A DNA stretch of 64,000 nt, from the NCBI RefSeq assembly GCF_002854065.1, contig NZ_CP024147.1; one strand, given 5' to 3'. Numbering within the stretch: position 1 is the stretch's first letter; every line of letters starts with the position of its first letter. The position numbers were made by a program. This stretch comes from Escherichia coli (GTDB lineage Bacteria > Pseudomonadota > Gammaproteobacteria > Enterobacterales > Enterobacteriaceae). Below, one piece after another: positions 25,501 to 28,500 of this stretch.

Positions 25501-28500
25501 TTAACGGCATCCGCTGCCACACCGCTTTTGGCAAACAGTCCGGTTTTACTGGCGGCGTCTAACAGGTTGTTATCCAGCCCCAGCACCACATCGGCTTTAC
25601 TGTTTTTGCCTTCCATCCGTAGACGGTTGAGAAGCGAAACGCCATCTTCCAGCGCCACCAGTTTCAGTTCGCAATTACAGTCGGCTTCAAAGGCTTTTTT
25701 AACCACCGGACCAGGCCCCCAGTCGGCGGCGAAGGAATCGTAGGTATAAACAGTCAGAACGGGTTTAGCGAAAACGGGCGCTGTGCACAGCAACAGCAGG
25801 GGAAGACATTTTTTTAACACTTTGCACCTCAAAAAAGAGTGGCAAAGGACTTGAGAAGGAGCCTCAAATCCCTTCGCCGGCGTTATCCGGATCAGGTTCG
25901 ACGGGTATTTTCTCAGCGCACGCGTCCGCGTGGCACCCCGTTGAGAACGGCGTTAGTGTAGTGATTTTGTTATCAACCAGCAATCCATAGAGAAGGCGTA
26001 TTAAAAAAGCCAATATTCGTTCAGCTATCAAGAGCGTATTTGCATAGCTGGAGAGCGTTGATCCGAAAGAATCCCCTTAGCACAGTCAAAATCGGTAACG
26101 CAACGGCTTATTACGTGAATGAGCGATTTTTGACAGTATTCTTATTCAAGACGCTTATTCTGAGTTTTTTACTCAGAGTGGAGCTATCAGCATGAAAGTA
26201 AGAAACCCAGAACAGATTAGTATCCCTGCTAGTAATACCACTAAAGATCCAGGCCTTACTAATTCTCAGATTATCAGGATGGTTAACTTGGTCCAAAAGA
26301 CCGAGAATATGAATATCTTTGAAGAGCTATGGGAGACGTTACGCAATCTCTTCCGGTCAGATAAACATTCCCAGGCTGCGGCAAGGCAAATTCTGAAGGA
26401 TGCATTTTATTTCCAGAATAGTGATGACTACTCAAAATACTTTACCGGGGCTGTCGACGGGAAGGCGCGTGATCAGTTAACTCACTGGCTGATAAAATTT
26501 AATGAACTCAAAGAATACGCAAAAGATCCGGAAAATATGGCCGCGAAGGCCTCACTCTCGCCAGAAGGTACGTTATGCGTCAGTTTTTTTATTGGCGATG
26601 AGGCGATATTTACTCTGGAGTTGCAGCTGAAAAAGAGCACCAGGACCGGGGGCATTGATCTGAGTAATGCTTACTTTAACGGGGTTGTCATTTGTGGTAT
26701 TGACTGTCTCGAGGTTGACCTGAGCAATGCTGAAACGAACAATAGCAGATGGTATGACTGACCTGCGCGAGGTTAACCTGAAAAAGCTGACCTTTCCGGC
26801 CAGAACACGGCTAGACTGCGCCGTTATTGATTAACTCAGAATATGAAAGAGGGGCTGAAATGCCCCTTCTTTAATCTTATTTGCGACGCTAATCAGACGA
26901 TGCATAAAACAGAGAGGTAATGACTCCAACTTATTGATAGTGTTTTATGTTCAGATAATGCCCGATGACTTTGTCATGCAGCTCCACCGATTTTGAGAAC
27001 GACAGCGACTTCCGTCCCAGCCGTGCCAGGTGCTGCCTCAGATTCAGGTTATGCCGCTCAATTCGCTGCGTATATCGCTTGCTGATTACGTGCAGCTTTC
27101 CCTTCAGGCGGGATTCATACAGCGGCCAGCCATCCGTCATCCATATCACCACGTCAAAGGGTGACAGCAGGCTCATAAGACGCCCCAGCGTCGCCATAGT
27201 GCGTTCACCGAATACGTGCGCAACAACCGTCTTCCGGAGCCTGTCATACGCGTAAAACAGCCAGCGCTGGCGCGATTTAGCCCCGACGTATCCCCACTGT
27301 TCGTCCATTTCCGCGCAGACGATGACGTCACTGCCCGGCTGTATGCGCGAGGTTACCGACTGCGGCCTGAGTTTTTTAAATGGCGGAAAATCGTGTTGAG
27401 GCCAACGCCCATAATGCGGGCGGTTGCCCGGCATCCAACGCCATTCATGGCCATATCAATGATTTTCTGGTGCGTACCGGGTTGAGAAGCGGTGTAAGTG
27501 AACTGCAGTTGCCATGTTTTACGGCAGTGAGAGCAGAGATAGCGCTGATGTCCGGCAGTGCTTTTGCCGTTACGCACCACCCCGTCAGTAGCTGAACAGG
27601 AGGGACAGCTGATAGAAACAGAAGCCACTGGAGCACCTCAAAAACACCATCATACACTAAATCAGTAAGTTGGCAGCATCACCAAACAGAGAAAATATAA
27701 AAGTAATGTATTTTATTCATTCCGTCTGAATATAAAAAACGCGCTCATGACCGCCAAAAGGCGCAAGCTACTCTGGATCCGGCGGCGCAAACCACGCTGA
27801 TTTAAAATCGAACCAGCCGAGGGTATTCATACGCAGGCCGCGCATACTGCGTTGCCCCTGAATGATCAGCCAGTGGTGGATAAGCGGCACCATTGCTTTG
27901 CTGGCGACCAGTTGTTGGCACCAGTTCGCCAGGTTCATTTCGCCATTGCGCCAGCGGGCGGCGTCGGCTTGCCAGTCGATCGGAATACAGTGTTGGAGCA
28001 GCGGTACCTCGCACAAGTGCGCGAACAGCGAAAAATCCAGCGGCAGCGTAAAGTTGGCGCTGTTAAGCCAGATATCGCTCTCGATCTCTCCTTCATGCCA
28101 CTGATCGTAGCTGATCTCTTTGATTTCCAGTGTGACCTGGTGGCTTGCCAGAATCTGCTGCATGATCCCGGCAATCACCCGATGCTCACTGTGATCCTGA
28201 TAAAAGGTCAGGGTGAGGCTTTCCAGACCAGCCGGTTTTTCGCTCTTTATGGTGCGGGCATGGTGCCAACGGGGGAGCAGTCCATAAGCCGGGAACCACA
28301 GTTGCTGGTACTGTTCCTCAGCGAAATAGACCAGATTAGTTGGAGAAAGCACATAGCTTACCCAGTCCCTGACTTGCTGATTCGCCCCGCGGTGGGTGCG
28401 GTTGTCGAACAGTAAATAGTAGCAACCTTCCTCCAGCCGACTTTCAATTTCTTTTTCCTCGCCCTGCGGCCCTTTCAGCATCAGGCCTCCGGCTGGTTCA

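Follow-up and report, generated by a model that had tools for sequence, protein, structure and literature searches.

An intact IS1 lying between two convergent genes of an Escherichia coli genome raises the question of whether it is simply the trace of one transposition that has been carried along ever since, or whether it belongs to some larger structure or alters the genes on either side of it. The element is found in a stretch of 64,000 nucleotides (contig NZ_CP024147.1, assembly GCF_002854065.1), here called the window, to which all positions refer unless another record is named. An earlier note, made from the sequence alone, had described it as a complete IS1 with a perfect target-site duplication (TSD), acquired relatively recently by simple transposition, which disrupts no coding sequence but could provide outward promoter activity. 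The reading that we favour, at a probability of about 93%, is that of a single simple transposition into the spacer between espY2 and sgrR, inherited clonally since then and probably a neutral passenger. Most of the earlier description is borne out by the analysis below; its statement on recency stands in part, and its suggestion of outward promoter activity does not.

Anatomy and isoform of the element

Inspection of the sequence places an IS1 of 768 bp at 26916-27683; its genes are encoded on the minus strand. All the components that make up a complete copy, namely both inverted repeats, insA, insB and the A6C frameshift window, are present, as the earlier note had reported. The features of the locus are listed here in order of position, with the basis of each assignment in brackets.

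26192..26761, plus strand: espY2, 189 aa, annotated as a T3SS effector (annotation of a near-identical genome; RefSeq name espY2)
26849..26868, no strand assigned: GC-rich hairpin, terminator-like on both strands, between espY2 and IS1, intact (terminator scan)
26907..26915, no strand assigned: left TSD copy, AAACAGAGA (sequence; one copy only in empty-site relatives)
26916..27683, minus strand: IS1, IS1B/C-type isoform, 768 bp (plasmid and K-12 comparisons)
26916..26938, minus strand: IRR, the right terminal inverted repeat, at the insB end, toward espY2 (18/23 match to IRL)
26931..27434, minus strand: insB frame, the C-terminal part of InsAB′ (open; Pfam DDE_Tnp_IS1, 261 bits)
27353..27628, minus strand: insA, 91 aa, GTG start (Pfam Zn_ribbon_InsA, 75 bits; HTH_Tnp_IS1, 105 bits)
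27371..27377, minus strand: A6C (AAAAAAC) programmed -1 frameshift motif (zero-frame codons TTA AAA AAC)
27661..27683, minus strand: IRL, the left terminal inverted repeat, at the insA end, toward sgrR (sequence)
27684..27692, no strand assigned: right TSD copy, AAACAGAGA (sequence)
27728..27770, minus strand: weak bulged hairpin and U6 tract directly after the sgrR stop codon, on the side between sgrR and IS1, intact (folding)
27768..29426, minus strand: sgrR, co-oriented with insA and insB and located upstream of IRL (annotation)

The perfect 9-bp duplication claimed for the element is confirmed by the identity of the two copies of AAACAGAGA. The duplication is exactly 9 bp long, the bases directly outside the two copies being unlike each other, and the motif occurs on both strands of the 64-kb window only at the two IS1 borders; the probability of a chance 9/9 match abutting both ends of the element is about 4^-9 = 4e-6. 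The terminal inverted repeats, GGTAATGACTCCAACTTATTGAT and GGTGATGCTGCCAACTTACTGAT, agree at 18 of their 23 positions; the two ends of the element, GGTAATGACTCCAACTTATTGAT and the reverse complement of ATCAGTAAGTTGGCAGCATCACC, form 23-bp imperfect inverted repeats. Imperfect ends of this sort are usual for IS1. A promoter-like site detected by the promoter scan, CTGCCA-16-TATGAT (27676-27649), overlaps IRL at the known position of the IS1 promoter in that repeat.

The coding capacity of the element is likewise intact. The products of insA and insB match the Pfam families PF03811, PF12759 and PF03400, and translation with a -1 slip at the A6C motif gives an uninterrupted InsAB′ of 232 aa, which scores 243.8 bits (cutoff 100) with the NCBIfam equivalog model for the IS1 family transposase, NF033558. 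The element is therefore an IS1 proper by its size and ends (~768 bp, with imperfect repeats of ~23 bp beginning GGT(G/A)ATG), by its genes (an insA with zinc ribbon and HTH, and an insB′ with a DDE domain in the -1 frame, joined through A6C), by the 9-bp AAACAGAGA on both sides, within the 8-9 bp range of IS1 target duplications, and by its near-identity to reference isoforms.

With regard to the isoform, the copy is 100% identical to IS1 on thousands of plasmids, the best match reaching at least 99% identity in at least 4,899 of the 5,000 best-scoring plasmid records, and shares 99.6% identity with the IS1 carried by phage P1. Compared with IS1B and IS1C of K-12 MG1655 (NC_000913.3, 279163-279930 and 290634-291401), which occupy other loci, 767 of 768 bases are identical, and the length, ends and gene layout are common to both. 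The one difference lies at IS position 704, where the present copy and IS1A have T and K-12 IS1B/C have A; residue 217 of InsAB′ is L here and in IS1A, and Q in K-12 IS1B/C. K-12 IS1A is more distant, with 760 of 768 bases identical, and two of its eight substitutions alter InsAB′ (F81 here versus L in IS1A, and R130 here versus S).

The architecture described for IS1A and IS1E, in which an A6C frameshift, an InsA repressor, an InsAB′ transposase and an 8-9-bp duplication are combined, is the one seen in the present copy (PMC12428005). According to the same work, from 2025, appreciable transposition in K-12 is limited to IS1A/E, and IS1B/C/D/F hardly move (PMC12428005); the contrast is with the present sequence, which has reached thousands of plasmids. 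Judged from its intact ends, insA, A6C motif and InsAB′, our copy looks competent for transposition. Two further signs, both indirect, are an identical copy with a duplication of its own 54 kb away in strain CUWW06 (see below) and the presence of at least 40 IS1 pieces in that genome. Its activity is not guaranteed, because it is a single residue (L217 versus Q217) away from the poorly transposing K-12 IS1B/C, but since its sequence is the one in wide circulation and not that of the K-12 variant we infer that it is active. The glutamine at position 217 may be a K-12-specific defect of IS1B/C, and the L217/Q217 contrast offers a small hint as to which substitution disables these K-12 copies.

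The espY2-sgrR spacer, empty and filled

The element is intergenic, between espY2 and sgrR, and no coding sequence is disrupted, in agreement with the earlier description. The two genes are convergent, and IS1 lies in the spacer of ~230 bp between their 3′ ends, starting 154 bp past the stop codon of espY2 (26761) and ending 84 bp short of that of sgrR (27768), with one repeat copy counted in each case; the distances of about 150 and 85 bp given previously were thus accurate. No terminator-like hairpin is interrupted either. Because neither a coding sequence nor a terminator-like structure has been broken, the insertion is most likely selectively neutral and the IS1 a passenger. The AT content of the 100 bp around the target is 71%, versus 47% for the window. 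IS1 prefers AT-rich targets, and the composition around the insertion fits this preference.

The gene on the left was identified as espY2 on the basis of its N-terminal WEx5F motif (WETLRNLF, beginning at residue 47) together with its annotation, EspY2 of O157 (ECSP_0073) serving as the reference and both gene and motif having been described previously (PMC3256949); its role as an effector is predicted, and neither EspY2 nor its paralogue EspY1 has a match among the Pfam and NCBIfam HMMs. Comparison with Rfam confirms two RNA elements in the vicinity, SgrS at 29494-29720 and the thiB TPP riboswitch at 25851-25950. Only 35 bp separate the stop codon of sgrR from the thiB leader (sroA, corresponding to the TPP riboswitch seen here) in K-12, and this short gap implies that espY2 resides on an accessory segment of ~1 kb that is absent from K-12.

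Several other observations concern these genes and the remainder of the window. An ORF of 35 aa in another phase (~26727-26834) overlaps the espY2 stop codon (…MTDLREVNLKKLTFPARTRLDCAVID) and is also called by gene callers in several relatives; a frameshift may have shortened an originally longer espY2. The paralogue espY1, which encodes 226 aa with the motif WETLRHLF, is located between djlA and rluA, shares stretches of ~75% nucleotide identity with espY2, the upstream region included, and stands beside a frameshifted transposase remnant annotated as a "transposase DNA-binding-containing protein" (9075-9755 and 9829-9958 for the two features). On the other side of sgrR, the window lacks setA: no more than ~40 bp separate the SgrS terminator (29691-29713) from the stop codon of leuD (29754), whereas K-12 has a setA of 1.2 kb at this site (29647-29753). 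This spot is polymorphic among the relatives, with an MFS gene in two loci (L007 and L016) and a gene for a Y1-type transposase in a third (L012). Farther away, a chromosomal toxin-antitoxin pair of the ccdA/ccdB family is found at 413-963, between folA and apaH (by the annotation of strain CUWW06), and three tandem 116-bp units of REP-like palindromes (GTAGGTCGGATAAGGCG…GCATCCGACA) occupy 62333-62680, with single related copies at 22527-22561 and 17144-17179. The tandem array looks like an ordinary BIME/REP cluster.

If the insertion was a simple one, genomes that lack it should contain a single copy of the duplicated motif, the check that the earlier note had proposed. We reconstructed the empty site as a 240-nt query from which IS1 and one repeat copy had been removed. 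Among 5,426 complete E. coli genomes, 833 covered at least 80% of this query, and most of the others matched at the sgrR end only, like K-12. All 14 of the empty loci that were fetched, three of them from near-identical relatives, contain the exact 40-mer with exactly one AAACAGAGA, and deletion of IS1 and one repeat copy from the window restores the sequence of the empty-site genomes exactly. The single motif in the empty relatives and the collinear flanks are those of a simple transposition, as had been proposed.

The filled left junction occurs in two complete genomes only, those of CUWW06, from wastewater in Thailand, and of strain 100416, from stool in Gambia. In CUWW06, a separate isolate (NZ_CP182139.1, 919809-920576), the insertion site, orientation, duplication and flanks are the same, and the alignment is collinear over 64 kb, free of indels and with 13 SNPs; the RefSeq record annotates the element, as an IS1B-family transposase with programmed frameshift. 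This is an ordinary intact IS1 insertion, already known and annotated in public genomes. Strain 100416 (NZ_CM128593.1), another isolate, shares the site, orientation and duplication and shows three differences from the window in 12.2 kb; the window itself therefore represents a third, sister isolate. One of the three differences is a substitution in 11.4 kb of flank, versus two within the 768 bp of its IS1 (corresponding to 26927 and 27037 of the window), one of which changes R198 of InsAB′ to K; these two may stem from gene conversion with another IS1 copy or from an error in the consensus of an assembly rich in repeats. No complete genome besides CUWW06 and 100416 is at least 99% identical on either flank, the next best being ~98% on both.

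The same filled junction is present in at least four other assemblies, among them these two genomes and the drafts with contigs L022 and L023, in which the sequence continues from sgrR over the repeat copy into IRL and ends inside IS1. Among the 23 contigs read that encode an identical SgrR protein, an allele indexed in 294 blocks of the collection, 18 are filled or broken within IS1, L022 and L023 included, and five are empty. It was this exact-protein look-up, and not the collection of complete genomes, that yielded the closest empty relatives, which differ from the flanks of the window at three (L018) and five (L020) positions in 9.66 kb. The empty-site relatives include GCA_012892155.1 and GCA_012663205.1. 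All filled records have T at 29891, in leuD, and the empty records C; where position 26858, in the loop of the 26849-26868 hairpin, is covered, the filled records have A and the empty ones G. These two derived SNPs (26858 G->A and 29891 C->T) co-segregate with IS1 in every covered relative examined, and position 30909 divides the filled group itself.

The shared junctions, the derived SNPs and the single AAACAGAGA of the empty loci argue for one event in the ancestor of a clone and point to a simple transposition that has been inherited within that clone and is not private to one strain. A common IS1 of the B/C type would have transposed once into the AT-rich spacer, the staggered 9-bp cut would have been filled in to give the duplicated AAACAGAGA, and the insertion, having arisen in the ancestor of a small E. 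coli clone, would have been passed on vertically since. The description of the event as relatively recent is supported insofar as other copies have exactly the same sequence and only three positions in 9.7 kb of flank separate the window from its nearest empty relative; it has to be qualified insofar as the insertion is also found in at least four further assemblies (from Thailand, Gambia and other places) and predates a split within the filled group. At typical E. coli substitution rates, a divergence of ~2-3 x 10^-4 would correspond to an age measured in centuries, a rough figure given the few SNPs.

Transcription around the insertion

The alternative that survives best, although we consider it unlikely, is that the insertion has a regulatory effect: read-through from sgrR would raise insAB′ transcription, or the 3′ end of the sgrR mRNA would be changed, or antisense transcription would enter a neighbour. 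The arrangement lends itself to such a reading, sgrR and the IS1 genes being on one strand with IRL just downstream of sgrR. A simple terminator scan missed any hairpin on the sgrR side, and folding of the 84-nt spacer revealed the one at 27728-27770. With a folding energy of -9.4 kcal/mol and z = -0.58 it is no better than shuffled sequence, so that, even with its U6 tract, it is only a candidate terminator; being the sole hairpin between sgrR and IRL, and a weak one, it may let some sgrR transcription into IS1, in which case the insertion would perhaps not be fully silent. On the other hand, a hairpin with a U6 tract does stand there. A stronger version, in which IS1 would have severed sgrR from its sole terminator at 26849-26868, was demoted to an alternative of low probability once the bulged hairpin and U6 tract had been seen in the 84-nt spacer.

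The outward direction offers less to this reading, and it is here that the earlier suggestion of outward promoter activity fails, there being no target for it. As espY2 and sgrR converge on IS1, transcripts leaving the element would be antisense to both. No promoter-like site was detected by the scan, at its threshold, across either IS1 junction; inspection by eye gave one hybrid candidate, TTGGCA in IRL with TATAAA in the flank, which was rejected because the two are 20 nt apart, too far. The insertion leaves the 3′ end of espY2 unaltered. Transcripts leaving the IRR end would, moreover, meet the hairpin at 26849-26868 before reaching espY2, and this structure folds well on both strands (-15.7 kcal/mol, z -2.8, on the plus strand, and -14.4 kcal/mol, z -3.0, on the minus strand).

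As for the effect of read-through on the element itself, co-oriented host transcription from upstream has been shown to raise both insAB′ transcription and IS1 transposition, and an upstream rrnB terminator to lower both (PMC12428005). By such a route read-through could make the present copy an unusually active donor. The two complete filled genomes contain at least 40 IS1 pieces each, versus a median of 10 per genome having any, and so represent an IS1-rich lineage. Against this, sgrR is a weakly expressed, autorepressed regulator, and the direction of the effect of read-through is uncertain, published results being in disagreement: going by the title of their 1983 report, Machida et al. are said to have found that read-through represses IS1 cointegration. 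That the copy receives sgrR read-through and has been a privileged donor in the expansion of its lineage's IS1 complement to at least 40 copies is a suggestion drawn from the arrangement of the sequence, and a slightly more doubtful one than a regulatory effect of any kind.

Relation to other IS1 copies and meaning of the insertion

Whether the IS1 could instead form one end of a bigger composite bounded by IS1 copies, or mark the breakpoint of a rearrangement, is a question posed by the 40 or more matching IS1 pieces of the host lineage and by an identical copy 54 kb away in CUWW06; we regard this as very improbable. The 64-kb window contains one IS1. In CUWW06, no other IS1 was found within 67 kb to the left of the insertion, and the nearest one to the right, the copy at 54 kb, is outside the window, inverted and identical at 768 of 768 bases. 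This second copy (974203-974970 in CUWW06; 31310-32077 of the fetched locus L025) interrupts a DUF3300 gene that lies between lpdA and acnB, and it bears a 9-bp duplication of its own, CTATAGCCG. The DNA between the two includes the leu operon, the mraZ-ftsZ cell-division cluster, secA and aceEF, and is essential core genome. An IS1-bounded composite transposon of the Tn9 type would have a duplication only at its outer ends, which is not what is seen; the separate duplications and the core genome in between indicate that the two copies are independent simple insertions. Together with the single copy in the window, and with flanks on both sides that are collinear with empty-site genomes and rejoin exactly on excision, this effectively refutes a composite or rearranged structure for the window, and the element is, as had been anticipated, not part of a larger composite. 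The opposite orientation of the two CUWW06 copies means that recombination between them would invert the intervening segment and not delete it. The present copy could donate further insertions or recombine with other IS1 copies.

Less probable still is an assembly artefact in which a multi-copy IS1 was put at the wrong locus, for although IS1 is highly repeated in this lineage and the drafts L022 and L023 break at it, two complete genomes, independent of each other and from different countries, share identical junctions, independent draft contigs pass from unique sgrR DNA through the repeat copy into IRL, and a perfect 9-bp duplication marks transposition, not misassembly.

We therefore retain the reading of a single transposition followed by clonal inheritance. 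For the organism, the insertion leaves the espY2 accessory segment intact and gives a genome that already has many IS1 copies a further homologous one; for those who study it, the insertion is a clean, single-origin marker of the clone, usable for typing by junction PCR. The copy is mildly interesting for its one-residue contrast with K-12 IS1B/C and for its co-oriented position downstream of sgrR. If it has indeed been a privileged donor, it would provide a natural case of the control of IS1 activity by genomic context that has been shown in engineered K-12.
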